Of a stretch of 64,000 nt of DNA, positions 3,942 through 62,826 are shown one piece after another; the first letter of the stretch is position 1, and each line of letters begins with the position of its first letter. A model generated the notes under the pieces. It saw only the letters and a program-made list of their open reading frames with translations, was not told the DNA's origin and searched no databases. A program made the position numbers and the translations under genes. The stretch is from a bacterium (lineage in GTDB: Bacteria; Patescibacteriota; Minisyncoccia; Phycocordibacterales; UBA1550): NCBI GenBank assembly GCA_030649835.1, contig JAUSES010000013.1, forward strand, positions 9,317-73,316. The letters are read 5' to 3'.

Positions 3942-4007
3942 TTCGTAGAAAGTGAATAGAAAGGGGAAACGGTATCAGGTACCCTTTCCAAACAAAACAC
4001 TCGCCAT

Positions 4008-4068
4008 CCAGCGGGTGTTTTGTTTTGCTCGCCCCGCGCTACTCCTACCGAGGTTAAACCTCGGTGGA
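4008..4068 (+). repeat. REP-like element, copy 1. It contains the palindromic hairpin CGAGGTTAAACCTCG.
   Basis: A 61-nt segment (ccagcgggtgttttg…ctcctaccgaggttaaacctcggtgga) is near-identical to 4818..4880. It lies directly upstream of the RAYT gene. Confidence 0.7.
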
Positions 4069-4095
4069 GACGCGTGTTTGTGCTACTATGAATGT

Positions 4096-4767
4096 ATGTC
4101 ACGAAATATAGATTTCTCTATCAACGAGTATTACCATCTTTATAACCGCGGTGTAGATAAACGCACAGTGTTTATGGATGCTGAGGATTACAAGAGATTC
4201 ACCGCGCTACTTTATCTTGCCAATAATACAAACAGCGTACACATGAATAATTTAAACCACCGAGGTTTAACCTCGCTGGACGTACTTTCGATCGAGAAGG
4301 GAGACACTCTTGTTGATATTGGGGCATATTGTTTGATGCCAAATCATTTCCATGTTCTCGTGCGAGAAAAAATTGAGAGTGGGATCAGTATATTTATGCA
4401 AAAAGTAATGACAGGATACACGATGTACTTTAATAAAAAATACAAAAGAACGGGAGCGCTTTTTGGTGGCACCTTTAAAGCACAGCATGTTGCTCGTGAC
4501 ACGTATCTAAAATATCTTTTTGCGTATATTCATTTGAACCCAATCAAACTTGTAGATTCGAACTGGAAGGAAAATGGTATCTCTGATAAAAAGAAGGCTG
4601 AGAGGTATCTGAATTCTTATCTGTATTCGAGTTACCTCGACTTTAAAGGAACAGACCGAGAAGAAAAGTCGATTTTGAACAAAGATGCATTTCCACAATA
4701 TTTTAGTACCAATGTTGAATTTCGCAGTTTTGTATCTTGGTGGCTAAATTTTAAGGACGAAAAATAG
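4096..4767 (+). CDS. REP-associated tyrosine transposase (RAYT) / IS200-like Y1 (HuH) transposase.
   Basis: The HuH motif CLMPNHFHVLV and the downstream YIHLNPIK/…Y region are typical of the IS200/IS605 TnpA / RAYT family. The in-frame ATG at 4096 gives about 223 aa. The listed ORF from 3952 would run through the REP element. Confidence 0.65.
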   Translation: MSRNIDFSINEYYHLYNRGVDKRTVFMDAEDYKRFTALLYLANNTNSVHMNNLNHRGLTSLDVLSIEKGDTLVDIGAYCLMPNHFHVLVREKIESGISIFMQKVMTGYTMYFNKKYKRTGALFGGTFKAQHVARDTYLKYLFAYIHLNPIKLVDSNWKENGISDKKKAERYLNSYLYSSYLDFKGTDREEKSILNKDAFPQYFSTNVEFRSFVSWWLNFKDEK

Positions 4768-4782
4768 GCGAACGCTTACCTT

Positions 4783-4803
4783 CAGTGAGGTTAAACCTCA
4801 CTG
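4783..4803. repeat. Perfect 21-bp palindrome cagtgaggttaaacctcactg (REP-like hairpin variant).
   Basis: Read directly. It shares the GAGGTTAAACCTC core with the flanking REP copies. Confidence 0.7.
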
Positions 4804-4817
4804 AAAACCTCGGTGAA

Positions 4818-4880
4818 CCAGCGGGTGTTTTGGTTTACTCGTACCGCTCGCCACTCCTACCGAGGTTAAACCTCGGTGGA
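4818..4880 (+). repeat. REP-like element, copy 2 (direct repeat of 4008..4068).
   Basis: ccagcgggtgttttggtttactcgtaccgctcgccactcctaccgaggttaaacctcggtgga. Confidence 0.7.
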
Positions 4881-13676: not shown

Positions 13677-13747
13677 AGCGGGGTAGAGAAGCGGTATCTC
13701 ATCAGGCTCATAACCTGAAGACGCCCGTTCGATTCGGGCCCCCGCAA
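13677..13747 (+). tRNA. Probable initiator tRNA-fMet (anticodon CAT).
   Basis: The cloverleaf was folded by hand. The anticodon loop is cUCAUAa. A11:U24 is present. Positions 1 and 72 are unpaired (A1·A72). The 3' acceptor strand CCCCGCA with an A discriminator matches the bacterial initiator tRNA as I recall it. The T-loop is TTCGATT. CCA is not encoded. Confidence 0.6.
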
Positions 13748-13812
13748 CACGAATAAAGTACTCTATCTTCGCGAACCTTGCTTATTTTAGAACAGCTGAT
13801 ATAATGGTATAT

Positions 13813-14493
13813 ATGGCTAAGTTTAAAGATAAAATAAAGGCACGTCAATTGAGAAAAAAAGGATGGAGCATAGGAGCTATTGCTGAAGAACTTGGGATTT
13901 CTAAATCATCCGCAAGTATTTGGTGCTTAGATGTTGTGTTGACGAAAAGGCAAACAAATAGACTTAAAGAAAATTCAATACGCGCTGGACATAAAGGTAG
14001 AATGATGGGGGCAGCAATGAACCACAAGAAGAAACTAGATGCAGTAGAATCCTCCAAACTAAAAGCCATTGCTCTCGTTGATCAAATGACACAAAGAGAC
14101 CTGTTTATGCTCGGGATAGGTCTTTATTGGGGGGAAGGAACGAAAAGTGAAAGGAGCGCACTTGCAGTTGTTAATTCTGACCCAGAAATTATACTCGTTA
14201 TGAAGAAGTGGTTTGAAATAATCTTCAATGTAAAAGACGAAGATTTTATGCCAAGGATATTTATAAACGAGATCCACCAACCTAGGATAAAAAAAGTTGT
14301 CGAATACTGGTCCTCCTTACTCAAATTGCCTAAGGAGCAGTTTGGAAATCAAGTATTGTTAAAAATAAAGCAAAAAAAGGTATATGAGAATTATGACTCA
14401 TATTATGGTATTCTATCGCTAAAGGTACGGAAGAGTTCTAAGTTGAAATATGAAGTACTTGGATTGATTGATGCAGTAAAAAAGAAGTATTAA
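13813..14493 (+). CDS. HTH-domain protein with a single LAGLIDADG-like motif (putative homing-endonuclease-like protein).
   Basis: N-terminal HTH (GWSIGAIAEELGISKSSASIW). The motif DLFMLGIGLYWGEGTKS resembles motif 2 (LRGLYEAEGSF) of the double-motif enzyme at 23913. The gene stops 6 nt before tRNA-Met. The listed ORF starts at 13804; the second Met at 13813 follows a TATAAT box. Confidence 0.4.
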   Translation: MAKFKDKIKARQLRKKGWSIGAIAEELGISKSSASIWCLDVVLTKRQTNRLKENSIRAGHKGRMMGAAMNHKKKLDAVESSKLKAIALVDQMTQRDLFMLGIGLYWGEGTKSERSALAVVNSDPEIILVMKKWFEIIFNVKDEDFMPRIFINEIHQPRIKKVVEYWSSLLKLPKEQFGNQVLLKIKQKKVYENYDSYYGILSLKVRKSSKLKYEVLGLIDAVKKKY

Positions 14494-14499
14494 ATTTAT

Positions 14500-14571
14500 G
14501 CCGGTGTAGTTCAATGGTCAGAACGAGGGACTCATAAGCCCTAGACAGTGGTTCGATTCCACTCATCGGCA
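14500..14571 (+). tRNA. tRNA-Met (anticodon CAT; elongator Met or lysidine-modified tRNA-Ile2).
   Basis: 7-bp acceptor stem gccggtg/catcggc with a G1:C72 pair. Anticodon loop cUCAUAa, T-loop TTCGATT, discriminator A. CCA is not encoded. Confidence 0.75.
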
Positions 14572-14575
14572 CAAA

Positions 14576-14625
14576 CAGTAGAAAGTGCGCCCTCGTGAGG
14601 GAGCACTTTCTACGGTTTGTGTCTT
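14576..14625 (+). terminator. Long hairpin following tRNA-Met (gtagaaagtgc…gcactttctac with inner ccctc/gaggg).
   Basis: Read directly. It is followed by ggtttgtg. Confidence 0.45.
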
Positions 14626-14692
14626 AGTGAATCGAACCGCGGGCCGCAGCACTCGAAGAGAGTGCGTAGGTTTCGAGCTCACCAGAGCGAGA

Positions 14693-14713
14693 GGCGATTC
14701 CACTCATCGGCAC
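14693..14713 (+). repeat. Direct repeat of the tRNA-Met 3' end (gattccactcatcggcac), about 140 bp downstream of the gene.
   Basis: 18-19 nt are identical to 14554..14572. An inverted T-arm-like fragment (gtgaatcgaacc) lies at 14627..14638. Confidence 0.75.
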
Positions 14714-14782
14714 CCGCAGTTTGTTTAGCGGACTGTTTCCTGTTAGAATGCGCAAGGGTTATTTTAGTTGAATTTATGTAAT

Positions 14783-14856
14783 GCGGTCGTAGCTCAGCTG
14801 GTTAGAGCGCCCGCCTGTCACGCGGGAGGTCGTGGGTTCAAGTCCCATCGACCGCG
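14783..14856 (+). tRNA. tRNA-Asp (anticodon GTC).
   Basis: Acceptor stem gcggtcg/cgaccgc. Anticodon loop cUGUCAc. D-loop agctcagctggttagagc. Discriminator G. Confidence 0.85.
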
Positions 14857-14857
14857 C

Positions 14858-14897
14858 AAATACAAAAGATACCTAGTGCTACTGCACTAGGTATCTT
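14858..14897 (+). terminator. Rho-independent-type terminator hairpin after tRNA-Asp.
   Basis: acaaaagatacctagtgc tac tgcactaggtatcttttgtattc. Confidence 0.6.
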
Positions 14898-15026
14898 TTG
14901 TATTCTTCCGCGTACGGGACTTGAAAGGCGGAGACATCCCGAGGCTTCTGCGAGGGAGTCGAGCCGGGGTCGAGAGTACTTAGGCTTTTTCGAGCGAAGC
15001 AAAGAAAAAGACTTAGTAACTCGTGA

Positions 15027-15055
15027 CCAAGTCCCATCGACCGCGCAAATACAAA
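15027..15055 (+). repeat. Exact 29-nt direct repeat of the tRNA-Asp 3' end plus trailer (caagtcccatcgaccgcgcaaatacaaaa).
   Basis: Identical to 14839..14867. It is followed by a second, different terminator hairpin (15052..15091, aaaatgagtccaacgc…gtgttggactcatttt). Confidence 0.85.
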
Positions 15056-15143
15056 ATGAGTCCAACGCAGAAGTGTTGGACTCATTTTGTTTAATGATTG
15101 AAAGAATGAGCTAAATAGTGTATTGTGTCGTGGTGTTGAATAA

Positions 15144-15170
15144 GCCGATGTAGCTGTTTTGGTAGGCAAG
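15144..15170 (+). repeat. Truncated 5' pseudo-copy of tRNA-Thr(GGT) (gccgatgtagctg…ggtagg), about 65 bp upstream of the intact gene.
   Basis: Compared by eye with 15211 onward. The same taag upstream context is present. Confidence 0.55.
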
Positions 15171-15210
15171 CAGGGGTACTGCGATAGTCTATATCTTGAA
15201 AATAATATAA

Positions 15211-15286
15211 GCCGATGTAGCTCAGTTGGTAGAGTGCGTCCTTGGTAAGGACGAGGTCTCCGGTTCAATCCCGGACATCGGCTCCA
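15211..15286 (+). tRNA. tRNA-Thr (anticodon GGT).
   Basis: Acceptor stem gccgatg/catcggc. Anticodon stem cgtcc/ggacg with loop tUGGUAa. T-loop TTCAATC. Discriminator T. CCA is encoded. Confidence 0.85.
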
Positions 15287-15324
15287 GTAAATAATTGACA
15301 TACAGTCAGTTATTTATTTTGTGC

Positions 15325-15345
15325 GCCGATGTCTGGGATTGAACC
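15325..15345 (-). repeat. Inverted copy of the tRNA-Thr(GGT) T-arm/acceptor 3' end.
   Basis: gccgatgtctgggattgaacc is the reverse complement of ggttcaatcccggacatcggc, with 1 mismatch. Confidence 0.75.
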
Positions 15346-15440
15346 AAGAAAGGGGTCGGGAAACGGGAGTTTCCTGTGGAGGAAAATGTTAGAAACCGTG
15401 GGTTTCTAAAGCGGGGTGAGCCTGCGAGCGAGCAGTGATC

Positions 15441-15458
15441 TCCCGGACATCGGCTCCA
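15441..15458 (+). repeat. Direct repeat of the tRNA-Thr(GGT) 3' end (tcccggacatcggctcca), about 170 bp downstream of the gene.
   Basis: Identical to 15269..15286, including the CCA. Confidence 0.75.
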
Positions 15459-15553
15459 TGATAGTTGAAAGCCTGTAAAGTCCTTAAGGTCAAAAAGTGA
15501 ATGCATTTTTGCAATCACTTTTGACTTTACACTTTGGACTTTTGACTGTTTGT

Positions 15554-15629
15554 GCCGACCTAGCTCAACTGGTAGAGCAACGGTATCGTAAACCGTAGGT
15601 TCCGGGTTCAATTCCCGGGGTTGGCTCCA
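15554..15629 (+). tRNA. tRNA-Thr (anticodon CGT).
   Basis: Acceptor stem gccgacc/ggttggc. Anticodon stem acggt/accgt with loop aUCGUAa. T-loop TTCAATT. CCA is encoded. Confidence 0.85.
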
Positions 15630-23912: not shown

Positions 23913-24707
23913 TTGCTAGTATCCATGAATATTGGGAAGGTTACTGAAGGTAGCCAATTTTTTGCGAGATCGTCTAATGGTCAACAAATATGCTATAATT
24001 CTTTTATGCCAAGCAATTGGAATAAAGGAGAGACCAAAACTACAAACCTTTCTGTAAGGAAGATTTCGGATACGATGAGGTTGAGGAAGATTGATAATTT
24101 TAAAATATGGAGAGACGGGATGAAGATGGAGGGGAAGGTTAAGTCAGAGTATCCGCAACTTGAGAAAAACGGAGACCTAGCAGAACTTATTGGTGTTGTT
24201 CTTGGTGATGGGCACATTTGTGTGTACCCTCGATGCGAGGAACTGCGACTGATATCAAATTCAAATAGCCCAGGGTTTATCAAAAGGTATGCAAAAATTA
24301 TGGAGCAGGTATTTAGCAAGAAGCCATATGTCATCTCGAGCGGTCAATCCAACTCTACCAAGATTGGTTTTTATGAAAAATTCATAAGTAAAAGGCTCGG
24401 TGTTCCAACTGGATCACGAAAAGACCTCGAAATTAAGGTCCCCAAATGGATTTCAAAAAATAGGGAATACGTGGTAAGGTATCTTCGTGGTTTATATGAG
24501 GCAGAAGGGAGTTTCTGTGTTCACGAGCCGACATATACCCACAAGTTCCTTTTCGCGAATAGAAACGAGTCGATGCTCAATAATGTTTATGAGTTAATGC
24601 AGGGTCTGGGTTTCCACCCACATAGAAGCAAAGACCAGATTCAAATTTCAAAAAAAGAAGAGGTGTATGGGGCGATGAAAGTATTAGGGTTTAGGGACTA
24701 CAAGTAA
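23913..24707 (+). CDS. Double-motif LAGLIDADG homing endonuclease (free-standing).
   Basis: LAELIGVVLGDGH (motif 1) and YLRGLYEAEGSF (motif 2). The stop lies 5 nt before tRNA-Gln. The real start may be the in-frame Met at 24006. Confidence 0.75.
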   Translation: MLVSMNIGKVTEGSQFFARSSNGQQICYNSFMPSNWNKGETKTTNLSVRKISDTMRLRKIDNFKIWRDGMKMEGKVKSEYPQLEKNGDLAELIGVVLGDGHICVYPRCEELRLISNSNSPGFIKRYAKIMEQVFSKKPYVISSGQSNSTKIGFYEKFISKRLGVPTGSRKDLEIKVPKWISKNREYVVRYLRGLYEAEGSFCVHEPTYTHKFLFANRNESMLNNVYELMQGLGFHPHRSKDQIQISKKEEVYGAMKVLGFRDYK

Positions 24708-24712
24708 ATATT

Positions 24713-24781
24713 GCGGGTTGGTGTAATGGTAGCACGTCGCCCTCTGGAGGCGAAAATTGGGGTTCGAGCCCCTGACCCGCA
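24713..24781 (+). tRNA. tRNA-Gln (anticodon CTG).
   Basis: Acceptor stem gcgggtt/gacccgc. Anticodon stem tcgcc/ggcga with loop cUCUGga. T-loop TTCGAGC. Discriminator A. The exact ends are uncertain by ±2 nt. Confidence 0.7.
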
Positions 24782-24833
24782 GCTAAGTTGAGCTAAGTAT
24801 TGAAGCCCTAGACGCAACAGAATCAACAATATT

Positions 24834-36882: not shown

Positions 36883-36918
36883 TGCTAAAATAACCATAAT
36901 GATTCGGAACGTTATGCG
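36883..36918 (+). repeat. 36-nt repeat, copy 2, spanning the cyoA promoter and start codon.
   Basis: tgctaaaataaccataATGattcggaacgttatgcg. The cyoA protein begins MIRNVMR. Confidence 0.8.
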
Positions 36919-37795
36919 GGGGATATTGGTAATTGCTATTTTGGGACTGGCAACATTTTTATGGGTCTATATGAGTACGCACAATATGGGCGTCTTTAAT
37001 CCTAAGGGGGTTATTGCGCTTGCGGAAAAAGATTTGATTGTTACCACGACACTCCTCATGCTCATTGTGGTCATTCCAGTGTTCGTGCTACTTGCAGCGT
37101 TCATTTGGAGATACAGGGCAACGAACACAAAAGCAACATACACTCCCGACTGGAGCGGGAGTAAGATTTTGGAAACAATCTGGTGGGCTATTCCCACGGC
37201 AATTATTATTGCACTCGGAATCATTACATGGAAAAGCACGCATGCGCTTAACCCGTACACGCCCCTTGTTTCAAATGTTCCGCCGATTACCATTGAGGTC
37301 GTAGCGCTAGACTGGAAGTGGCTTTTTATTTACCCAGAGCAAAATATTGCTACGGTAAATTTTGTGCAGTTTCCCGTGGGGACACCGGTCAATTTTAAAA
37401 TTACGGGTGATGCGCCCATGAATTCATTTTGGATTCCCCAGCTTGGAGGACAAATATATGCGATGGCTGGAATGAACACAAAGCTTCACTTAATGGCTAG
37501 TGAAGCGGGGGAGTACGCCGGGCTCTCGGCCAACTACAGTGGTGCGGGATTTTCTGGAATGAAGTTTACGGCAAAGGCGAGCACGCAGGAAGAGTTTGAC
37601 GCGTGGGTAGAGACAGTGCGTCAATCGCCAATTACTCTAAGTCTCAGTGAATACGATGAGCTTGCACAAAAAAGCCGAAATAATCCAGTAACGTATTATT
37701 CATCTGCCGAAGAAAATTTGTATGGTAAAATAATAATGAAATACATGGAACCAAGAGGAATTTTACCACCAGCTATGCACGAAATGACAAGATAA
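36899..37795 (+). CDS. cyoA: Cytochrome bo3 ubiquinol oxidase subunit II.
   Basis: Two N-terminal TM helices plus a cupredoxin-like domain lacking the CuA ligands. Long stretches (WKWLFIYPEQNIATVNF…MNSFWIPQLGGQIYAMAGMNTKLHL…YSGAGFSGMKF) resemble E. coli CyoA as I recall it from memory. Confidence 0.8.
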   Translation: MIRNVMRGILVIAILGLATFLWVYMSTHNMGVFNPKGVIALAEKDLIVTTTLLMLIVVIPVFVLLAAFIWRYRATNTKATYTPDWSGSKILETIWWAIPTAIIIALGIITWKSTHALNPYTPLVSNVPPITIEVVALDWKWLFIYPEQNIATVNFVQFPVGTPVNFKITGDAPMNSFWIPQLGGQIYAMAGMNTKLHLMASEAGEYAGLSANYSGAGFSGMKFTAKASTQEEFDAWVETVRQSPITLSLSEYDELAQKSRNNPVTYYSSAEENLYGKIIMKYMEPRGILPPAMHEMTR

Positions 37796-42901: not shown

Positions 42902-44863
42902 ATGTTTGGAAATTTAACACTCTCTGCGATTCCTACGGACCCGATTACGATTGGTGGTGGTTTTGTAATGGTTCTTTCAATATCGACGATTATCGGACTG
43001 TTGACCTATTTTAAAAAGTGGAAGTGGCTGTGGACGGAGTGGCTCACGTCAGTTGATCACAAAAAAATCGGTGTGATGTATATCATTCTCGCATTTGTGA
43101 TGATGCTCCGTGGTTTTTCTGATGCGATTATGATGCGCCTCCAGCAGGCTCTCTCGGTGGGGGATGCAGTAGGGTATTTACCACCAGAACACTACGACCA
43201 AATATTTACTGCGCACGGCGTGATTATGATTTTCTTTGTGGCGATGCCGTTAATGTTTGGGCTCATCAACTGGGCAGTGCCACTCCAGATAGGTGCGCGT
43301 GACGTTGCGTTTCCTTTTTTAAACTCCATGAGTTTGTGGCTCACGATTACTGGTGCGATGCTCGTGAACCTTTCGCTCGTGGTGGGGGAGTTTGCAGCGA
43401 CAGGATGGCTCGCGTACCCACCTCTTTCGGGGATTGTCTACAGCCCCGGCGTGGGTGTGGACTACTATATTTGGGCGCTCCAAATAGCGGGGGTGGGAAG
43501 CTTGCTTTCGGGAATCAACTTTTTTGTGACTATTCTTATGATGCGCGCGCAAGGAATGAATATGATGCGTATGCCGGTTTTCACGTGGACAGTTTTTTGC
43601 AGTATGATTTTGGTGATAATTTCTTTCCCTATTCTCACGGCGACACTCGGCATGCTCTCCCTTGACCGATTGCTCGGGATGCACTTTTTCACATCGGATT
43701 TTGGGGGAAATGCCATGATGTATGTAAATCTCATTTGGGCGTGGGGGCATCCTGAGGTGTACATTCTCGTTTTGCCTGCGTTTGGAATTTTTTCAGAAGT
43801 TGTCGCCACTTTTTCACGTAAGAAACTTTTTGGATACACCACGATGATATGGGCTACTATCGCTATTACCTTTCTCTCATTCGTGGTGTGGGTGCATCAC
43901 TTTTTCACAATGGGCGCAGGTGCAAATGTAAATGCGTTTTTTGGCATCATGACGATGATTATCGCCATTCCTACCGGCGTGAAAATTTTCAACTGGCTCT
44001 TCACTATGTTTCGCGGGCGCATCATTTTTGCTTCACCGATGCTCTGGATGATTGGTTTCGTGGTGACTTTCACCATTGGGGGCATGACGGGAGTACTCCT
44101 CGCGGTGCCGGGGGCGGATTTCCAGCTTCACAATAGTTTGTTTCTTATTGCGCATTTTCACAATACTATTATTGGCGGAGTGGTGTTTGGATATTTTGCA
44201 GGGCTCACGTATTGGTGGTCAAAGATTTTTGGATTCACGCTAAATGAGCGCCTTGGCAAAGCTGCATTTTGGCACTGGATCATCGGCTTTTTTGTTACGT
44301 TTACACCACTTTATATTCTGGGGCTTATGGGAATGACGAGAAGGCTCAACAATATTCCTGCAGGCACTGGCTGGGAAACACTTCTATATGTAGCCGGCAT
44401 TGGCGCACTGATTATTGGTATCGGAATTGTTCTGCAAATTTTACAGCTCATCGTAAGTATCCGTGACCGTGAAAAAAACAGAGACACGACCGGCGACCCG
44501 TGGGATGCGCGCACCCTAGAGTGGTCCACATCATCCCCTCCGCCATTTTATAATTTTGCGGTGATTCCTGTGGTGTGGGGACGAAGTCCGTTTTGGGGGA
44601 TGAAGAACAACCCGACAGAACGAGAGCTAAACCCACAGTACCAGGATATTCACATGCCAAAAAATACCGGGATGGGTTTGTATATTGCAATCGCGAGTTT
44701 CTTCGTTGGGTTTGGTTTAGTGTGGCACATATGGTGGCTTGCGGGGCTTGGTTTTGTGGCGGTCATCGCGCTCGTCATTATTCGTTCTTTTGATTATGAT
44801 ACGGAGTATGTGGTAACGGCGGAGGAGATAGCGCGTATTGAAAATGCGCGTAAGCAAAAGTAA
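42902..44863 (+). CDS. cyoB: Cytochrome bo3 ubiquinol oxidase subunit I (heme-copper oxidase).
   Basis: 653 aa. [22 protein letters not shown] and the His ligands are present (HHFFTMG, LIAHFHN). It shows very high similarity along its length to proteobacterial CyoB as I recall it. Confidence 0.9.
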
Positions 44864-44864
44864 T

Positions 44865-45491
44865 ATGAATACAGAAACACTAAATCAAAATCTCACCGCC
44901 ACGCATGAGGCACACCAGACGCGTGGTGCAAAAGCCCTGTTTGGCTTCTGGACGTACATTATGAGCGACGTACTTCTGTTTGGCGCAATTTTTGCATCAT
45001 ACGCAGTGCTCCATGACAACATCTTTGGTGGGCCTTCAGCAAAAGAGCTCTTTAGTATGCCGTTTGTTTTAGTAGAGACACTCGTGCTTCTCGCAAGCAG
45101 TTTCACTTTTGGGCTCGCATCGCTACATGCGCATCACCATGCGGAGGGCAGGAATTGTATACCGAAAGTGGTGAAGTGGCTTGGCATAACATTCCTTCTT
45201 GGAGCAGTCTTTTTAGGAATGGAGTTGTTTGAATTTGCAAAACTCCTTGAAGAGGGGAACGGATGGCAGAGAAGTGGTTTTTTGTCGGCGTTCTTTACAC
45301 TTGTGGGCACCCACGGTCTTCACGTGACGGCGGGGCTCATTTGGATGGGGAGTGTGACCGCGCAGGTCGTGCGTCACGGCATTACCGAGAGGACGATAAA
45401 CAAAATATCCACACTCGGTTTGTTCTGGCATTTCCTTGATATCGTATGGATATTCATTTTCACGTTTGTGTATTTAATGGGCGCAATATAA
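44865..45491 (+). CDS. cyoC: Cytochrome bo3 ubiquinol oxidase subunit III.
   Basis: Five TM helices. The start is taken at the in-frame ATG just after the cyoB stop; the listed ORF begins at 44838. Confidence 0.75.
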   Translation: MNTETLNQNLTATHEAHQTRGAKALFGFWTYIMSDVLLFGAIFASYAVLHDNIFGGPSAKELFSMPFVLVETLVLLASSFTFGLASLHAHHHAEGRNCIPKVVKWLGITFLLGAVFLGMELFEFAKLLEEGNGWQRSGFLSAFFTLVGTHGLHVTAGLIWMGSVTAQVVRHGITERTINKISTLGLFWHFLDIVWIFIFTFVYLMGAI

Positions 45492-45512
45492 CGAACTCAT
45501 ATCAAAAATATT

Positions 45513-45893
45513 ATGGATACTAACGATTTTAAAATAATTGATGAGGAATACGAAGCAGGGCGCCTTGCTTTGCGATCGTACGTGACAGGTTTTGTGCTGT
45601 CCATCATACTCACACTCATTCCGTATTTCATAGTGGTAAATAAAATGTTCGGAGTACAAAGTATGGTTGTGGCCATTGTCCTCTTTGGCGTGACCCAGCT
45701 TTTTGTTCAGGTTGTCTTTTTCCTCCACCTTCATAAAAAATTCAAACCTAAATGGAACATGGTTATTTTTACGTTCACAGTACTCATTGTTTCTATATTG
45801 GTCGTAGGTACACTTTGGATTATGTCCAACCTCAACTACAACACTATGCATAGAACCCCCGCGACGTTAAATGAAGGATATATTCCACAGTAG
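45513..45893 (+). CDS. cyoD: Cytochrome bo3 ubiquinol oxidase subunit IV.
   Basis: 126 aa with three TM helices. Positioned after cyoC. Confidence 0.65.
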   Translation: MDTNDFKIIDEEYEAGRLALRSYVTGFVLSIILTLIPYFIVVNKMFGVQSMVVAIVLFGVTQLFVQVVFFLHLHKKFKPKWNMVIFTFTVLIVSILVVGTLWIMSNLNYNTMHRTPATLNEGYIPQ

Positions 45894-45899
45894 AGGGGG

Positions 45900-45934
45900 T
45901 AGAATGTAGAATTTAGAATATTGAATATAGAATG
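45900..45934 (+). repeat. Tandem heptamer array TAGAATG-TAGAATT-TAGAATA-TTGAATA-TAGAATG running into the ATG at 45932.
   Basis: Read directly. The units resemble -10 boxes (TAGAAT). It is the complement orientation of the ATTCTAA arrays. Confidence 0.75.
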
Positions 45935-46237
45935 AAAAAAACTCTTTTTAAAAACGATAAATATAAAAAAACGCGTGGTGGATACTCGCGACTTTTGAAT
46001 ATCTCTTGTGAAAAATGCAGGGAACATATTTGCAATTATCAAAAAGACGGGCCAGGTAATTTACGTCGACTATATCGTGATCGCATCAGCAATCCGAAGA
46101 TCTCTGTTTCAGGAAAGAACCTCACTTGCTCGAGAGGTCATCTTCTAGGTGTAGGAATTATTTATGATAAAGAAAAACGACCAGCGTTTCGTTTATTTGT
46201 TGATTCGGTCACGAAAAAGATAATTAGATCTGTCTAA
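45932..46237 (+). CDS. Hypothetical small Cys-containing protein.
   Basis: CEKCREHIC…C..H pattern. No family recognised. Confidence 0.3.
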   Translation: MKKTLFKNDKYKKTRGGYSRLLNISCEKCREHICNYQKDGPGNLRRLYRDRISNPKISVSGKNLTCSRGHLLGVGIIYDKEKRPAFRLFVDSVTKKIIRSV

Positions 46238-46242
46238 TCGTT

Positions 46243-46824
46243 ATGGAAAATATACAAGTATATATCGGATATGCGGCGGGAATACTCGGGTTCATCCCAT
46301 TTATTTTGCTGATCATCTCAATGAGAAAGGGTATAACAAAACCAAATCTAGCTGGATGGGTTTTGTACACTGTTGCGATGGTGATGATTGTGGCTAGTAG
46401 TATCGCACTTAATGCATGGCAAGCTGTGTGGCTTGCCATGGCCTATGTTGTCGGACAATCTTTAGTAATCGCTGTCTCCTTCAAGACTGGTTATTTTTCC
46501 TTTTCTCGTTTTGATTATTGGTGCTTATCCATTTCTTTTTTAAGCCTGATACTCTGGATTTATACAAATAATCCGCTATATGCACTGGTATTAAATGTCA
46601 TTGTTGATGGGCTTGGAACATTTGCGATATCACGAAAGTTGTATTTGCATCCAGGAACTGAAGATACAACGGCATGGGTTGTTGGATTCCTCGTAGCCTT
46701 GCTTAATGTGTTTGCTGTTGCTTCTTTTGATATTAGTAACGCACTTTATCCTATATACATAGTACTTGCGTGTGCTTTAATTGCTGGGTTAAGTTTGAGA
46801 CGAGTTAATGCTATAAATACTTAA
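46243..46824 (+). CDS. Hypothetical polytopic membrane protein.
   Basis: Six predicted TM helices. Confidence 0.35.
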   Translation: MENIQVYIGYAAGILGFIPFILLIISMRKGITKPNLAGWVLYTVAMVMIVASSIALNAWQAVWLAMAYVVGQSLVIAVSFKTGYFSFSRFDYWCLSISFLSLILWIYTNNPLYALVLNVIVDGLGTFAISRKLYLHPGTEDTTAWVVGFLVALLNVFAVASFDISNALYPIYIVLACALIAGLSLRRVNAINT

Positions 46825-46826
46825 AT

Positions 46827-47441
46827 ATGAATATTAAGAATTACTTATTTGACTTTGATGGGACGCTTTTTGACACGCAGAAGCTACATGCTGCAGTAGA
46901 ATCTGAGTTGTTTGCTGAAAACGGAATCGCAATGCCACCAGAGGAGATAACTGAAAAATATGCTGGTATTAAAACAGAAGCATTTTTTGCTGAACTTTTG
47001 GGAGACGAGAAACTTGCAAAGACATTGATCGCAAAAAAATGGGAGAAATTAATTCCCCTTGCGCGAACAGCTGAACCTCTGGGTGATCTACATACCCTTT
47101 TTTCCTCACTTAAAGCTAAGGGTCTACTTTTTGGCATTGGCACAGCATCTCCCTTGTCATGGGTTGAGGAAATATTGGCAATAAATAATCTCACACCCTA
47201 CTTTTCAGAAAAATCTATCATTACTGGTGAGATGGTTGAACAAGGGAAGCCTCATCCAGAAACATGGCAAAGATTACAGTGTGGGGTTCCAGGGGAAAAT
47301 TGTCTTGTTGTAGAAGATGGTGTTGCTGGGGTCTTTGCCGCAAAAGCGGCCAACATGAATTACGTAGTCGTTGGGAAACCAAATGATAAATTTCCGGAAG
47401 ATTCAGTCTTTATTCAATCTGTCTCTAGTCTAATAAACTAA
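46827..47441 (+). CDS. HAD-IA hydrolase (beta-phosphoglucomutase/phosphatase-like).
   Basis: Motif I LFDFDGTLFDT. Later motifs GIGTASP and VVEDGVAGVFAAKAANM. Confidence 0.6.
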   Translation: MNIKNYLFDFDGTLFDTQKLHAAVESELFAENGIAMPPEEITEKYAGIKTEAFFAELLGDEKLAKTLIAKKWEKLIPLARTAEPLGDLHTLFSSLKAKGLLFGIGTASPLSWVEEILAINNLTPYFSEKSIITGEMVEQGKPHPETWQRLQCGVPGENCLVVEDGVAGVFAAKAANMNYVVVGKPNDKFPEDSVFIQSVSSLIN

Positions 47442-47442
47442 C

Positions 47443-48297
47443 TTGCTTAAAAACTATTACCAACTCACCAAGCCGGGGATTATTTATGGCAATGCGATTA
47501 CGGTTGTTGCGGGTTTTTTGATTGCGTCGAGGGGGAGTGTTGATTGGTGGCTCTTGCTCGTGACTCTGCTTGGGATTTCGCTCATTATGGCGTCGGGCTG
47601 TGTCTTTAATAATTACATTGACCGTGACATTGATGCTTTGATGGAGCGGACGAAAAATCGTGCGTTGGTGAAGGGTGCGGTGTCCTTGAGAGGCGCACTT
47701 TTTTACGGCGTTTTTTTAGGATCTCTCGGTACTGTCCTTTTATTTTTGTATACAAACACATTGATCGTGCTTGTTGCGCTTGGCGGACTCGTTGCGTATG
47801 TTGGTTTATACAGTTTGCGCTTCAAGCGCACGTCCACGCACGGCACTATCGTAGGAAGTATTTCTGGAGCAGTGCCACCGGTTGTGGGGTATCTTGCAGT
47901 TTCAAATAGTGTCGACCTAGGGGTTGTGATTTTATTTTTTATTCTAGCGCTTTGGCAGATGCCCCATTCATTCGCCATTGCCATATATCGACTCGAGGAT
48001 TATGCAAAGGCAAATATCCCCGTGCTCCCCGTCAAAAAAGGAATTTTTATAACGAAAATACAGATGGTGATTTACATCACACTTTTTATTCTCGCCACAC
48101 TTGCGCTTCCCGTGTTTGGCTATGTAGGCAACGCATATTTCTTTACAATGTCTTTATTTGGCATTGTGTGGCTTACACTTGCAGGAAAAGGTTTTTCTAC
48201 GACCAATGACAAACTCTGGGCTCGCCGTATGTTCATTTTTTCAATCGTAATTCTAACGATTTTTTCTATCATGATTGCGTTTGATGTGGTAAAATAG
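47443..48297 (+). CDS. cyoE: Protoheme IX farnesyltransferase (heme O synthase; UbiA family).
   Basis: NNYIDRDIDALMERTKNRALV (Asp-rich motif). Nine TM helices. Confidence 0.85.
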   Translation: MLKNYYQLTKPGIIYGNAITVVAGFLIASRGSVDWWLLLVTLLGISLIMASGCVFNNYIDRDIDALMERTKNRALVKGAVSLRGALFYGVFLGSLGTVLLFLYTNTLIVLVALGGLVAYVGLYSLRFKRTSTHGTIVGSISGAVPPVVGYLAVSNSVDLGVVILFFILALWQMPHSFAIAIYRLEDYAKANIPVLPVKKGIFITKIQMVIYITLFILATLALPVFGYVGNAYFFTMSLFGIVWLTLAGKGFSTTNDKLWARRMFIFSIVILTIFSIMIAFDVVK

Positions 48298-59056: not shown

Positions 59057-61210
59057 ATGGAAAAAATACTCTATACATGTCCAATGCACCCGAATATTGT
59101 TCGCGAGATGCCGGGGATATGTCCAGAGTGTGGGATGAGTCTCGTGCTAGCACGAGCGCGGAAGGACGCTGACGACACGCAGACGGGCGCGGAAAAATTT
59201 CTGCATGAGTCCGCGTCAATTCCGCATAGTTCCGCGTTTACTAAGCATGAGGGGCATCATACGGAAGATTTTTTGAAGAAGTTTTTTGTAGTACTCGTGC
59301 TTACGGTTCCGCTCCTTGTATATTCCGAAATTTTTGCACTCGCGTTTTCGTGGCAACCGCCGCATTTCACTGCGGAGCCTGATGTGATGCTCGCACTTGG
59401 TTCATTCATCTTTTTTTATGGTGGGTCAGTATTTTTGAGAGGAGCATACCACGAGCTCCGAGCTTGGCTCCCCGGGATGATGACACTCATCTCGCTTGCT
59501 ATTACGGCTGCGTATGCATTTAGTGTTTTTGTCGTCTTTACCGGCGGGGAACACACACTTTTTTGGGAGCTCGCCACGCTTATTGCCATCATGCTTCTCG
59601 GGCACTGGATAGAAATGAAAGCGGTAAAGGGTGCTCAAGGGGCACTCAAGGAACTCGCGAAGCTTTTGCCAGATACCGCGGATGTAATTCGTGCTGGTGT
59701 TACTTCCACCATTTCTATTTCAGAGCTCCGCGTGGGCGACCGCGTACTCGTGCGTCCCGGGGCAAAAATCCCTGCTGACGGTGTTGTTGTAGAGGGCCGA
59801 TCAGAGATAGACGAATCTATTATTACCGGTGAGTCAAAACTAATTCTAAAAGTGGTTGGCGTGGGGGTAATTGCGGGGTCTTTAAACGGCGACGGTAGTC
59901 TCACCATTGAGGTGAAAAAAATTGGCGAAGGAACATTCCTCTCTGGCGTGATGCGCTTGGTTCTTGAGGCAGAGGCGAGCAAGTCACGCCTTCAGATTTT
60001 GTCTGACCGTGCGGCGCTTTATTTGACAGTCATCGCAGTACTCGCAGGCACTGCAACATTTATAGCGTGGATTTTAGCTGACGCAGGAATTGTTTTTGCG
60101 ACGGAGCGTCTTGTTGCCGTGCTTGTCATTACCTGTCCACACGCACTTGGTCTCGCGGTGCCCCTCGTTGCGTCCATCTCCACCACGATGGCAGCGAGAA
60201 ACGGGTTTCTTGTCCGCAAGCGCATTGCGCTCGAGTCGGCACGCACCATTGATGTTGTTCTTTTTGATAAAACGGGAACACTCACCACGGGCGCGTTTGG
60301 CGTGTACGCAGTCATCCCCGCTGACTCATTTACCGAGCTTGACGTACTTCAAAAAGGGGCTGGTCTTGACCAAGGCTCAGAGCACCCACTTGCAAAAGCG
60401 GTCGTGAGAGAAGCAGGGAAACGCGGAGCCACTTTGCTCCCAATGAAAAACTTTGAGCGGATAGCGGGGAAGGGTGCTCGTGGAGATGTGGGCGGAGACA
60501 CAACCCTTGTGGGTAACGAATTATTTATGAATGAGACGACTATTGTTCTTGCACCAGAAATTCTTGCAAAAACTCGCGCATTGGAAGGCGAGGGCAAGAC
60601 GGTGATTTTTGTCGCATCAAAGGGTCAGCTTGTGGGAGCCCTTGCTCTCGCGGACACGATTCGTGAGGAGTCGCGCGAGGCGGTGGAGGCGCTTCGCGCG
60701 CTGGGCATTCGTACGGCGATGATCACGGGAGACTCGCCCGATGTAGCAGCATGGGTTGCAAAGGAGCTTCACATTGACGAATACTTTGCGCGGGTACTCC
60801 CCGGTGAAAAATCAGAAAAAGTAAAAATACTTCAGGCGCAGGGGCACAAAGTCGCGATGGTGGGGGACGGGGTGAACGATGCGCCAGCACTCACGCAAGC
60901 TGACCTTGGTATCGCTATTGGCGCTGGGACCAATGTCGCCATAGAGTCCGCTGGAATTATTCTCGTCAAAAACGACCCTCGTGATATTCCAAAAATCATT
61001 CGTCTTTCTAAACTCACCTACACAAAGATAATACAAAACCTTTTTTGGGCAACGGGATACAATATTGTCGCGCTTACTCTCGCGGCAGGCGTACTCTTTT
61101 CTAAGGGCATTATTTTACAACCAGCAGTCGCGGCGGTACTTATGAGTGTGTCCACGGTTATTGTTGCATTTAATGCACTCTTGTTGCGTCGGAATAAATT
61201 AAGTGTATAG
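59057..61210 (+). CDS. P1B-type heavy-metal ATPase with a CPH motif (CopB-like).
   Basis: N-terminal CPMHP…CPECGM metal-binding motif. TM CPH (ITCPHALG). DKTGTLT. GDGVNDAPAL. Confidence 0.85.
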   Translation: MEKILYTCPMHPNIVREMPGICPECGMSLVLARARKDADDTQTGAEKFLHESASIPHSSAFTKHEGHHTEDFLKKFFVVLVLTVPLLVYSEIFALAFSWQPPHFTAEPDVMLALGSFIFFYGGSVFLRGAYHELRAWLPGMMTLISLAITAAYAFSVFVVFTGGEHTLFWELATLIAIMLLGHWIEMKAVKGAQGALKELAKLLPDTADVIRAGVTSTISISELRVGDRVLVRPGAKIPADGVVVEGRSEIDESIITGESKLILKVVGVGVIAGSLNGDGSLTIEVKKIGEGTFLSGVMRLVLEAEASKSRLQILSDRAALYLTVIAVLAGTATFIAWILADAGIVFATERLVAVLVITCPHALGLAVPLVASISTTMAARNGFLVRKRIALESARTIDVVLFDKTGTLTTGAFGVYAVIPADSFTELDVLQKGAGLDQGSEHPLAKAVVREAGKRGATLLPMKNFERIAGKGARGDVGGDTTLVGNELFMNETTIVLAPEILAKTRALEGEGKTVIFVASKGQLVGALALADTIREESREAVEALRALGIRTAMITGDSPDVAAWVAKELHIDEYFARVLPGEKSEKVKILQAQGHKVAMVGDGVNDAPALTQADLGIAIGAGTNVAIESAGIILVKNDPRDIPKIIRLSKLTYTKIIQNLFWATGYNIVALTLAAGVLFSKGIILQPAVAAVLMSVSTVIVAFNALLLRRNKLSV

Positions 61211-61221
61211 TGAGAAATAAT

Positions 61222-62826
61222 ATGAAAAAAAGATACATTTTATTTGGGGTTATTCTCCTCCCAATAATAATTCTTAGTGGGATTTCCTCGGAAATTTCTG
61301 AAAAGGAGTTTTCAACGAGCACGTGGGGTTTGCCAGAGGCTCAACTTTCACAAATAGTTGAGCTAAAAGATGGTGACACGTATGATCTCACTGCGAGTTT
61401 TGTAAAGAAAAATATCAACGGCAACGCTGTGCGCATGCTCGCGTACAACGGCTCTGTTCCCGGACCGACACTAAAAGTTCCACAGGGAGCAACCGTTAAA
61501 ATTAATTTTAAAAATGATACTGATATCGGAAACACGCTTCACTCGCACGGCGTGCGTATGGAGAATGCGTCTGACGGCGTGCCGGATGTAACGCAAGAAA
61601 TAGTTCCTGTGGGGGGTTCGTTCGCGTATGTCTTAAAATTTCCCGATGCGGGTGCGTACTGGTATCATCCACACGTACGCGATGACTACACTATTGAGAT
61701 GGGACTTTATGGTAATTTTCTCGTGACTCCCAAGGAGGGCTCGTCGTGGAATAAAGTCGACCGCGAGGAAATGGTTTTTATAGATGATATTTTGCTCGAG
61801 AAGGGAGACATTGCGCCGTTTAAAAAAGAAGGAGCAGACCGCACGCTCATGGGTCGCTATGGTAACACGATGTTTGTGAATGGCGAGACAGACTACACGC
61901 TTAGTGTAAAAAAAGGCGAAGTGGTTAGATTTTATTTTACCAACAGCGCTAACGTGAGACCGTTCAATCTTACGATTGTGGGAACAAAAATGAAACTCGT
62001 TGGTGGAGATAGCGGTTTGTATGAGCGCGACACGTGGGCGGACTCGGTTATGATAAATCCATCTGAACGCGCGATTGTTGAGGTGCTTTTTGACAAAGAA
62101 GGTTCATATGAGCTTCAAAACAAAACATCCGAAAAAACCTACACACTCGGAGGGATTGTTGTTTCTGGTGGAGAAACGTCTTTAGCGCCTGGAAAATCTT
62201 TTAGTGATCTTCGCTTGCACCCAGAGATTTCGAAGAGTATTGATCAATTTCGTTCCTCGTTTACAAAAAAGGTGGACAAGCAAATGAAACTTTCTATATA
62301 TATGATGGGGGGCTCAAATATGGGAGGGATGATGACAGGCGGTGCAATGATGGAAGGTGGCATGGGGTCGAGCACCGGTGTCCCAAAAGGTGGGATCGAA
62401 TGGGAAGACACCGACATGTCGGCAATGAACATGATGTCTGACACAAAAATGATAGCATGGAACATTGTTGACGAAGATTCGGGCAAGAAGAATATGGACA
62501 TTGATTGGGATTTCAAGGTAGGGGATAAGGTGAAAATTCGCATTACGAACGATGGTACATCTATGCCCGCCCGAATGACTGAAGGTATTCAGTCGGGCGG
62601 GCATCCCATGCAACACCCAATCCATTTTCATGGACAGCGATTTTTGGTAGTAAATAAAAACGGCGTACAGCAAACAAACCTCGTGTGGAAAGACACCGTC
62701 CTTGTACTTGCAGGCGAGTATGTGGACATTATTCTTGATGCCTCAAACAAGGGCACATGGATGGCGCACTGCCACATTGCCGAGCATCTCGAAGCAGGGA
62801 TGATGATGACATTTAAAGTGGAATAG
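61222..62826 (+). CDS. Multicopper oxidase (CueO/laccase-like) with a Met/Gly-rich insert.
   Basis: Cu-site motifs HSHG, WYHPH, HPIHFHG, HCHIAEHLEAGMM. Met-rich MMGGSNMGGMMTGGAMMEGGMG. Signal peptide. The listed ORF starts at GTG 61210; ATG 61222 is preferred. Confidence 0.8.
   Translation: MKKRYILFGVILLPIIILSGISSEISEKEFSTSTWGLPEAQLSQIVELKDGDTYDLTASFVKKNINGNAVRMLAYNGSVPGPTLKVPQGATVKINFKNDTDIGNTLHSHGVRMENASDGVPDVTQEIVPVGGSFAYVLKFPDAGAYWYHPHVRDDYTIEMGLYGNFLVTPKEGSSWNKVDREEMVFIDDILLEKGDIAPFKKEGADRTLMGRYGNTMFVNGETDYTLSVKKGEVVRFYFTNSANVRPFNLTIVGTKMKLVGGDSGLYERDTWADSVMINPSERAIVEVLFDKEGSYELQNKTSEKTYTLGGIVVSGGETSLAPGKSFSDLRLHPEISKSIDQFRSSFTKKVDKQMKLSIYMMGGSNMGGMMTGGAMMEGGMGSSTGVPKGGIEWEDTDMSAMNMMSDTKMIAWNIVDEDSGKKNMDIDWDFKVGDKVKIRITNDGTSMPARMTEGIQSGGHPMQHPIHFHGQRFLVVNKNGVQQTNLVWKDTVLVLAGEYVDIILDASNKGTWMAHCHIAEHLEAGMMMTFKVE

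Follow-up and report, generated by a model that had tools for sequence, protein, structure and literature searches.

The integrative elements that insert into tRNA genes, which include phages, integrative and conjugative elements, genomic islands, and their non-autonomous derivatives of the cis-mobilisable (CIME) type, repeat the 3′ end of their target from a point within the T loop, a known sublocation of integrases, and leave the tRNA intact. Their displaced copy is contiguous with the native trailer, present and absent alleles occur, and units may form tandem arrays. Here, we describe tRNA 3′-end repeats behind tRNA-Met, tRNA-Asp, and tRNA-Thr(GGT) in a 64-kb stretch (hereafter the window, meaning the whole of the DNA analysed) of a cellular genome of Patescibacteria, the candidate phyla radiation (CPR). 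The segments bounded by these repeats, and their relatives in other CPR genomes, share all of the above features, but they are only about 100–290 bp long, carry no integrase or other gene, contain an extra, antisense copy of the tRNA end, and enclose a conserved and covarying three-way junction that is the same behind five tRNAs while the repeats are rewritten at each. We read the repeats as three copies of a family of small, non-coding, structure-bearing insertion elements located 3′ of Patescibacteria tRNA genes, and put the probability of this reading at roughly 55%. No paper describing these elements was found in the literature; the one related text retrieved, a preprint dealing with group I introns of tRNA genes in Patescibacteria (10.1101/2025.07.03.662931), does not mention them.

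Behind each of the three tRNAs, its own last 18–20 nt were copied exactly, at start-to-start distances of 141, 189, and 172 bp for tRNA-Met, tRNA-Asp, and tRNA-Thr(GGT), respectively. The repeated sequences were CGATTCCACTCATCGGCAC (14554–14572 and 14695–14713), CAAGTCCCATCGACCGCGCA (14839–14858 and 15028–15047, the repeat reaching 29 nt and into the trailer), and TCCCGGACATCGGCTCCA (15269–15286 and 15441–15458). Each of them had exactly two sites in the 64 kb with up to three mismatches allowed, against a chance expectation of 0.00–0.02, and the inserts of 141–189 bp held no open reading frame (ORF). The full order of an element was the tRNA, a usually present, bidirectional terminator hairpin (T1), a segment X′, a structured core, a segment X, and usually a second terminator (T2). 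X′ is the reverse complement of tRNA positions 54 to ~74, X is a direct copy running from C56 of the T loop to the 3′ end, and the two pair to close the core. Cores of two types were distinguished, type 1 being the commonest, and type-1 cores were scored with R1, a covariance model built from an alignment of 11 of them. The features of the array in the window are as follows.

14500–14572 (+), tRNA-Met (CAT, elongator type), host of element 1 (ARAGORN; Rfam tRNA, 68.9 bits)
14570–14621 (+), hairpin T1 of the Met element, 25-nt arms (92%)
14621–14638 (+), X′ of the Met element, a degenerate antisense of three parts of tRNA-Met (T loop, T stem, and 3′ strand of the acceptor), with GAATCGAACC exact
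14639–14694 (+), divergent core of the Met element, with a GCACTC/GAGTGC hairpin at 14649–14665 (5.6 bits against the type-1 model)
14695–14713 (+), X of the Met element, the tRNA-Met 3′ end from C56 onwards, repeated directly and without mismatch over 19 nt
14783–14857 (+), tRNA-Asp (GTC), host of element 2 (ARAGORN, Rfam)
14859–14904 (+), terminator-like hairpin T1 of the Asp element, 21-nt perfect arms
14909–14925 (+), X′ of the Asp element, consisting of CGCG (14909–14912, a partial acceptor complement) and GGGACTTGAA (14916–14925)
14926–15027 (+), core of the Asp element, an intact type-1 three-way junction (R1, 96.3 bits, E 2.5e-26)
15028–15056 (+), X of the Asp element, the tRNA-Asp 3′ end from C56 onwards and 9–10 nt of trailer, repeated directly and without mismatch over 29 nt
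15051–15090 (+), terminator-like hairpin T2 after the Asp copy, 16-nt perfect arms
15140–15165 (+), 5′ fragment duplicated from tRNA-Thr(GGT), truncated and including 4 nt of leader (88% to 15207–15232)
15211–15286 (+), tRNA-Thr (GGT), host of element 3 (ARAGORN, Rfam)
15289–15319 (+), hairpin T1 of the Thr element, AAATAATTGAC / GTCAGTTATTT, followed by a T-rich run
15325–15345 (+), X′ of the Thr element, a 21-nt antisense of tRNA-Thr ~52–72 with one mismatch (95%)
15346–15440 (+), rearranged core of the Thr element, with GGGGU-hairpin modules at 15352 and 15413 and GUGAUC at 15435
15441–15458 (+), X of the Thr element, the tRNA-Thr 3′ end with its CCA, repeated directly and without mismatch over 18 nt

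Most of the layout given in the original prediction was borne out: ARAGORN and Rfam placed the three tRNA genes at the boundaries listed above, the 3′-end repeats proved to be exact, a hairpin stood directly after each tRNA, and both the second terminator behind the Asp copy and the 5′ tRNA-Thr fragment were present. The inverted T-arm-like fragment proposed for each segment was found at 14627–14638 behind tRNA-Met and at 15325–15345 behind tRNA-Thr(GGT), whereas the one placed at 14955–14975 behind tRNA-Asp is part of the structured core, the true inverted fragment lying at 14909–14925. In the folded element, the inverted fragment pairs with the direct copy, each supplying one strand of a single closing helix. 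When each insert of the window was folded alone, a multibranch structure was obtained in which the antisense X′ paired with the direct copy X as the closing helix (z-scores of −1.65, −2.93, and −3.95 for Met, Asp, and Thr, respectively).

Among the window copies, only the Asp element is an intact type-1 element, the Met and Thr elements being degenerate or rearranged relatives. In the Asp core, P2 is formed by GGC (14927–14929) with GCC (14963–14965) and is followed by an internal loop GGAG/CGA and P3 (14934–14959); GGGGU (14966–14970), P4 (to 15022), and GUGACC (15023–15028) complete the junction. GGGACTTGAA is the complement of tRNA positions 54–63, the CUGC-loop hairpin characteristic of a full-length X′ is absent, and the acceptor complement is a remnant only. 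The Thr core lacks P2 and P3 and reached 6.8 bits over the full model length; it keeps UUGAA, GGGGUCG, and GUGAUC, and its clamp is near-perfect, the single X′ mismatch giving a G-U pair with X. In the Met element, the tRNA 3′ end, T1, and X′ together form an imperfect palindrome of ~90 nt (14550–14638; 14573–14638 against 14618–14550, 84%). A fragment of the Met X′, AATCGAACCGCG, was found again within the Asp element of L001, the closest genome compared (neighbouring protein 78% identical), a hint that adjoining elements exchange sequence. The truncated 5′ copy of tRNA-Thr(GGT) is orthologous in L001 (5720–5786, 79%), and it is older than the 3′ elements and outside their family. A 21-nt inverted match (90%) was also seen between 14566–14586, spanning the tRNA-Met 3′ end and the hairpin start, and 15538–15558, the run-in to the 5′ end of tRNA-Thr(CGT); the latter side is native, being also present in L001, and the match is possibly due to chance.

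The same architecture was common to tRNA-fMet, tRNA-Met, tRNA-Asp, tRNA-Thr(GGT), and tRNA-Thr(CGT) across the comparison set, which consisted of the window and 91 CPR loci with 194 tRNAs in total. A downstream copy of the tRNA's own 3′ end (its last 16 nt, with at most two mismatches and within 700 nt) was found for 27 of the 194 tRNAs, compared with 2 when the same probe was applied upstream as a control. The hosts were tRNA-Asp (12 of 45), tRNA-Met and tRNA-fMet (10 of 102), tRNA-Thr-GGT (4 of 15), and tRNA-Thr-CGT (1 of 15), and the repeat spacings were mostly 137–200 bp. Searching 537 kb with R1 yielded 27 matches at E ≤1, of which approximately 25 were credible. All credible matches lay 18–160 nt downstream of a tRNA on the same strand and ended in the 3′ end of that tRNA, and none of those in the 537 kb lay away from tRNAs. 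Two seeming exceptions stand behind a tRNA-fMet that ARAGORN overlooked, interrupted by an insert resembling a group I intron.

In a full-length X′, the antisense of the tRNA end is interrupted by a hairpin with the loop CUGC. A type-1 element accordingly begins, after T1, with the complement of the acceptor 3′ strand, including the discriminator and one or two trailer bases; it continues with (A/G)AG, the CUGC-loop hairpin, CGU, and the complement of the T-stem 3′ strand and T loop ending in UYGAA. The core then reads RG, NYC-GGAG, a hairpin, CGA-GRN, GGGGU, a second hairpin, and GUGAC, after which the sequence from C56 to the tRNA 3′ end and a terminator follow; the conserved junction bases are UYGAA-RG, NYC-GGAG...CGA-GRN, and GGGGU...GUGACC. 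X′ is a true reverse complement of the 3′ strand and not a copy of the tRNA 5′ strand, as shown by L012, where a T stands opposite A72 of tRNA-fMet. Some elements lack T1 and abut the tRNA directly (L003, L027, and L066). The type-2 core is unrelated but is held in the same clamp; it consists of GAARA, a hairpin, UGUACUG, and a hairpin with a GUAA loop, and occurs behind tRNA-Met and tRNA-Asp in other genomes.

Covariation was evident in both types. The RNAalifold consensus of the 11 type-1 cores was a three-way junction with double changes in 16 of 23 pairs, the CUGC hairpin had very different but compensating stems in 11 elements, and compensatory changes affected 17 of 30 pairs in type 2. 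In the alignment of all R1 matches, which is fitted to the model, 90% of cells were paired as opposed to 34–45% with the partners slid by 1–3 columns; changes on both sides occurred in 20 of 23 pairs, and 0 of 500 shuffles reached the observed values. Independently of the model, 22 of 26 elements folded more stably as the tRNA-sense strand than as the complementary one (mean −4.7 kcal/mol, Wilcoxon p 6e-4). G-U outnumbered A-C combinations by 40:14 overall and by 27:4 in the core helices outside the closing helix. Selection on the structure acts on the single strand of tRNA sense. Pairing supported by compensatory changes in one strand is what is expected of structured non-coding RNA in general, and it suits RNA and single-stranded DNA alike; the folded strand could be read-through RNA or lagging-strand template DNA.

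Comparison with known RNAs yielded no family for the cores. In the window, tRNA alone passed the gathering thresholds of Rfam 15, whose families include ribozymes, riboswitches, tmRNA, Y RNA, and group I/II introns, and scans of the window, L013, and L016 at permissive E-values gave only chance-level matches of the miRNA type. The hammerhead ribozyme was considered for its three-way junction and its GAA and NUGANNA-like strands, but inspection of the aligned three-way-junction cores placed A or G at position 15.1, G at 16.1 and 17, and GUGACCA in place of CUGANGA; no hammerhead match was returned by Rfam for the window, L013, or L016, and none of the circular permutations of this and other small ribozymes, all tried by hand, fitted. 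The GGAG/CGA internal loop is not a kink-turn, having a bulge of 1 nt instead of 3, and no covariation was seen that would support a kissing interaction of the CUGC loop with GCAG/GGAG.

Presence and absence of the elements could be followed by comparison with L001. Clean indels of 141 bp (Met) and 172 bp (Thr) with conserved flanks separated the two sequences, so that L001 has empty sites at these tRNAs. The Met X is followed by the native trailer CCGCAGTTTG, and the Thr X by its own; in L001, the same trailers stand directly 3′ of tRNA-Met and tRNA-Thr(GGT), respectively. The tRNA-Asp of L001 has a larger homologous element, the core of which is disrupted by a ~100-nt expansion. Units were repeated perfectly in tandem in L027, L064, L015, and L094, and in divergent form in L066. 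Cores and parts of cores recurred behind different tRNAs: the Met and Asp elements of L016 have a 62-nt core in common with 1 mismatch, whereas T1, X′, and X differ and X′/X are tRNA-specific; the CUGC and P2/P3 modules of the L012 tRNA-fMet element and the L013 tRNA-Asp element are nearly identical, whereas P4 is different; and the two elements of L013 have P4 but not P3 in common. Conversely, the same tRNA was followed by type 1 in some genomes and by type 2 in others.

The junction within the T loop was fixed. X′ always extended to the complement of T54, and the left edge of the exact repeat was C56 in 12 of 27 elements and G53 in type 2. A staggered double-strand cut in the T loop, as might be read from the X′ and X boundaries, was discarded because the offsets differ between type 1 and type 2. 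In several elements, the repeat ran through the terminator into the first part of X′ (53 nt in L055, 21 nt in L060, and at least 60 nt in L015, L027, and L064), and partial copies of X′ appeared again after T2 in L001, L016, L055, and L060.

Overall, the elements have a target-derived clamp, a strand-specific conserved core, precise presence and absence, tandem amplification, modular exchange, and a fixed T-loop junction. These properties match in substance one of the two suggestions of the original prediction, namely miniature tRNA-targeting elements that regenerate the tRNA 3′ end, given the empty and occupied alleles, the tandem arrays, the near-identical cores, and the fixed T-loop boundary; the recommended comparison with related genomes likewise gave clean indels against L001 and a recurring architecture in other CPR loci. 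Because the tRNA gene remains whole and its terminator is kept, insertion is of low cost. The elements would be selfish or semi-selfish. The flanking direct repeats permit precise loss and tandem amplification, seen as empty alleles and arrays, and both presumably proceed by recombination between the repeats. The occurrence of the same core behind different tRNAs, with X′ and X rewritten and the junction at a fixed T-loop position, suggests that new tRNAs may be reached by templated, site- or structure-specific recombination in the T loop. The folded X′/X stem would then be a double-stranded replica of the tRNA gene 3′ end that could act as an attachment site, by analogy with integron attC and CTX-phage attP, with the enzyme supplied in trans. 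We also propose, tentatively, a more novel reading in which the cores would be a new class of self-retargeting genetic parasite, or of ribozyme-like RNA, of tRNA genes. On moving, a structured module of ~60–100 nt would become flanked by ~20 nt of the tRNA behind which it lands, with host enzymes alone carrying this out. With the antisense written 5′ and the sense 3′, the folded replica of the target might in that case function as a programmable attachment site or guide.

Several observations weigh against the insertion-element reading. No recombinase or other mobilising enzyme linked to the elements was found, so that the mechanism of spread is purely inferred. No promoter for the elements was seen, and a strong T-tailed hairpin lies upstream of most of them, which weighs against high RNA expression. 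Two of the three window copies score near zero on the type-1 model. The empty sites can equally be precise deletions between direct repeats, gain and loss not being polarised. Between L004 and L013, the Asp cores have 92.6% identity, against 80% at the DNA level for the adjacent gene, which points to constraint or recent transfer; this fits vertical inheritance of a functional RNA under constraint as well as mobility. The closing helix has no G-U bias (13:10) and may result secondarily from an inverted duplication instead of being under selection as a stem. All loci were fetched by one anchor gene adjoining the Met-Asp-Thr array, which biases the sampling; tRNA-Gln loci, fetched via a conserved upstream gene, showed no element in ~6–8 distinct lineages, so that the family either favours certain tRNAs or is confined to the Met-Asp-Thr array. 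Finally, the type-1 core pattern gave 16 matches in 2.9 million viral contigs, 15 of them chance occurrences within GC-rich coding DNA. With only one genuine match (L094), the elements are not typically phage-borne. This match (L094 2825–3319, − strand; IMG/VR contig IMGVR_UViG_3300033463_005745) consists of two or more units in tandem and occupies the extreme end of a 34.7-kb contig of putative viral origin, and its host tRNA would fall beyond the sequence examined.

The most serious alternative, which we consider credible although less likely, is a conserved, vertically inherited, immobile non-coding RNA linked to tRNA genes, with patchiness arising from repeat-mediated loss and similar cores from gene conversion. 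Derived from tRNA transcripts that read through, such an RNA could serve as a signal for processing or punctuation, as a decoy, as a ribozyme, or as a binding partner of proteins. The strong covariation, the conserved unpaired junction bases, the folding specific to the transcribed strand, the invariant GNRA (GUAA) loop of the type-2 core, the Asp cores that are better conserved than the neighbouring coding gene, and the elements of L003, L027, and L066 that abut the tRNA without T1 all speak for it. It is harder to reconcile with the strong terminator-like hairpin ahead of most elements and the lack of a visible promoter, with the coexistence of intact, degenerate, and rearranged copies in one genome, with the ~100-nt expansion that disrupts the L001 Asp core, with two unrelated cores at the same tRNA site in different genomes, and with the perfect tandem copies. 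Gene conversion is implausible for the L016 pair, in which the flanking homology is 5–7 nt. Replication error has a much smaller chance of being the whole explanation: functionless by-products would arise by fold-back template switching at the palindromic terminator, giving X-T-X′-X-T with the core as filler. The long, near-perfect palindromes running from the tRNA T arm through T1 into X′, the true complementarity of X′ to the 3′ strand including A72, discriminator, and trailer bases (L012), the partial X′ copies after T2 in four loci, and the unbiased closing helix are in line with this process. It leaves unexplained the conserved core with its compensatory changes, junction bases, and strand bias, as well as the recurrence of this core behind different tRNAs and in different genomes; skeletons without a core were not seen. 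At most, it explains the origin of X′.

Movement by a known class of enzyme was also considered. The window encodes a Y1 HUH transposase-like protein (3952–4767), another such Y1_Tnp/REP-associated gene adjoins the tRNA-Gln locus L121, and the core has two hairpins that always follow TYGAA. The elements could be non-autonomous derivatives of IS200/IS605-type single-strand transposons, moved by such a Y1 transposase and resembling palindrome-associated transposable elements (PATEs) or paired repetitive extragenic palindromic (REP) sequences (REPINs). Their insertion point would lie 3′ of TYGAA, a short target on the lagging-strand template; folding concerns the + strand, which the positive GC skew and gene orientation suggest to be the lagging-strand template. 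We nevertheless hold this origin to be improbable, if marginally less so than replication error. The four GAGGTTAAACCTC hairpins belonging to the gene are absent from the tRNA elements, TYGAA is merely the complement of the universal T54–A58, and no match occurred away from tRNAs. IS200/IS605 insertion produces no target duplication, least of all a direct copy of 19 nt together with an inverted one. The other suggestion of the original prediction, att scars left by repeated integration and deletion of tyrosine-integrase elements, supposes that each tRNA once received a larger element in its T loop and that nearly all of this element has since been lost by deletion. The direct repeats (exact over 18–29 nt) indeed begin in the T loop and can reach into the trailer, and the elements bring their own terminator. 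Deletions occurring independently, on the other hand, would not converge on one covarying three-way junction behind five tRNA species across many genomes, and the interiors are related to one another rather than unrelated. The window has no further sites of the repeat cores. Among ~50 of its 54 ORFs of at least 150 aa, Pfam recognised neither an integrase nor a reverse transcriptase, and no tyrosine or serine recombinase gene or recognisable remnant of one was found in or beside the inserts. The larger tRNA spacers of L009 and L011 held ordinary genes without a recognisable recombinase, as judged from ORF translations only. The single true viral-contig match had no integrase context. To our knowledge, an antisense copy of the tRNA end belongs to no attL or attR. 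This explanation is very improbable and already largely refuted. Lowest of all, and close to negligible, is the chance of assembly collapse or a chimera of a tandem tRNA array, a concern raised with the original prediction. No evidence for it was found. The flanks are colinear with L001, and at least 18 contigs, assembled independently in other projects and by other assemblers, show this architecture with sequences of their own; the only other assembly found for the window genome (L108) begins downstream of the array.

The elements can further be set beside known systems that resemble them in part. Integron attC and the folded single-stranded attP of CTX phage, which exist as recombination sites only when one DNA strand forms a hairpin, have a structure conserved on that strand, variable stem sequences, and a stem mimicking a double-stranded recombination target, and attC cassettes stack in arrays beside a fixed site as the units do here; this likeness is one of analogy only. 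In contrast to attC, the stem ends here are variable and target-specific and the loop (core) is conserved, which is the opposite arrangement; the R″/R′ boxes (RYYYAAC / GTTRRRY) and R/L boxes are lacking, no link to IntI or Xer and no integron integrase in the window was seen, and RNA may be the folded form. Miniature inverted-repeat transposable elements (MITEs) and REP/REPIN sequences are likewise small, non-coding, hairpin-forming, sometimes amplified, and dependent on functions in trans. Unlike the arms of MITEs, the inverted arms here copy the adjacent tRNA and vary from site to site instead of copying a transposase site, without a short target-site duplication; all model matches were tRNA-linked rather than dispersed, and the REP-like hairpins of the window have another sequence.

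The tRNA-like processing signals (plant mitochondrial t-elements, mimics of the mascRNA (MALAT1-associated small cytoplasmic RNA) type, and the tRNA-like domains of transfer-messenger RNA and bacterial Y-RNA) share the closing helix of acceptor and T-stem 3′ strand, stacking as in the acceptor/T minihelix, and location in tRNA transcription units. The acceptor and T-stem helix is present, but here the T loop is either base-paired or has the core in its place, the helix continues through the discriminator into the trailer, no D or anticodon arm exists, the identity follows the neighbouring tRNA, and the distribution is polymorphic. The primer-binding sites of retroviruses and long-terminal-repeat (LTR) retrotransposons are also complementary to ~18–21 nt of a specific tRNA 3′ end, ending in the T loop. 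They differ in that, here, CCA is left uncovered for Asp or Met, no reverse transcriptase or LTR is present, and a sense copy exists too; the analogy was rejected since the complement ends at the discriminator or +1 and the window has no reverse transcriptase. We place the elements as a variant of tRNA-gene-targeting, target-regenerating insertion elements, with a substantial chance of their being a categorically new, self-retargeting structured element. The observation is genuine, holds more interest than att scars would, and is extended by a conserved structure that the original prediction could not show.

If the insertion-element reading is correct, CPR tRNA genes host an insertion element that has no gene of its own, preserves its target, and consists of a folded core with target-derived arms. 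It would add a further way for DNA to colonise tRNA genes, beside integrases and group I introns, and would account for the tRNA "fragments" that confuse the annotation of these small genomes. It would also provide a compact natural case of target-matched arms around a conserved scaffold, an arrangement that might act in recombination, as a guide, or to clamp the substrate of a ribozyme. Even if the elements are an immobile, vertically inherited RNA, they represent a new and well-supported structured RNA family that depends to an unusual degree on the neighbouring tRNA.

The window belongs to a Paceibacteria-like member of the Patescibacteria, with nearly all genes on the + strand, including those for LigA, GatA, a release factor, FtsEX, CTP synthase, and type IV pilus proteins. 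The closest relatives, found via the ORF at 13804–14493, were metagenome-assembled genomes of "Candidatus Paceibacterota" and other Patescibacteria. An exact-protein look-up of the neighbouring ORF found nothing on record, and a search of phage and annotated records with the whole tRNA region gave tRNA matches only. The Met-ORF-Met-Asp-Thr-Thr array is syntenic in many CPR genomes, its spacers ranging from 2–50 nt up to several hundred. The other tRNA genes of the window, identified by ARAGORN and Rfam, are as follows.

13677–13748, tRNA-Met
15554–15629, tRNA-Thr-CGT
24712–24783, tRNA-Gln

Two different LAGLIDADG-type genes (13804–14493 and 23913–24707, both +) each end 4–6 nt before a tRNA gene. 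The former, which precedes tRNA-Met, encodes HTH_23 and has a weak match to the I-DmoI profile (E 7.6e-4); this pairing is widely conserved in CPR, being found in more than 450 metagenome stretches. The latter precedes tRNA-Gln and is a LAGLIDADG_3 homing endonuclease (233 aa) in public records; this pairing is likewise widespread in CPR, the gene having 1046 homologues, with tRNA-Gln downstream in every locus checked.

The Y1 HUH transposase-like gene (3952–4767, +) lies inside a type IV pilus operon. It matched Pfam Y1_Tnp (E 4.6e-7), and the NCBIfam profile of the REP-associated tyrosine transposase (RAYT) at 35.6 bits, below the cut-off of 80. Because the Y1 domain begins at residue ~116, the start codon is probably later than 3952. 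Four GAGGTTAAACCTC hairpins flank the gene on both sides (4050–4062, 4262–4274, 4787–4799, and 4862–4874); the palindrome gave 8 matches at 4 sites in the window, both strands counted, against 0.05 expected, and all window copies fall within 4050–4874. From its sequence, the locus looks like a RAYT gene with its own REP sequences.

Other kinds of tRNA-derived sequence were seen at the same loci. The 5′ ends of 7 of the 194 tRNAs were duplicated upstream, for example, at 15140–15165 in the window, 4812–5028 in L001, and 3656–3842 in L002; in L001, two tandem 103-bp units each start with the first ~22 nt of tRNA-Asp plus leader and contain a hairpin. These 5′-end duplications are another family than the 3′ elements. 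Downstream of tRNA-Thr(GGT) in L002 (4949–5560), a string of tRNA 3′ halves and T-arm fragments from several tRNAs was found, separated by the repeated motif CTCCAG(T/C)CGGTGGGGATTAAGACGAG. It includes a 35-nt exact duplication of the Thr 3′ half without an antisense arm and is therefore a third kind of tRNA-fragment element. Downstream of tRNA-Gln in L126 (2630–2840), isolated T-arm-like fragments (AAGTTCGAATCCAAG and CGGTTCGAATCCTTGA) occurred without an acceptor-end copy. The insert-interrupted tRNA-fMet genes overlooked by ARAGORN lie upstream of the anchor ORF in L064 (~2490–2750, −) and L066 (~2465–2720, −), a type-1 element still following the 3′ exon. The 3′ part of the L064 insert contains GGTTCAGAGACTA, a putative group I-like core motif, and the insert would fit the published group I introns of Patescibacteria tRNA genes.

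Respiratory oxidases are uncommon in CPR genomes. The window contains haem-copper oxidase genes at 36899–37795 and 42902–48297 (COX_ARM, COX1, COX3, and a UbiA-type haem O synthase), as well as a multicopper oxidase at 61210–62826.

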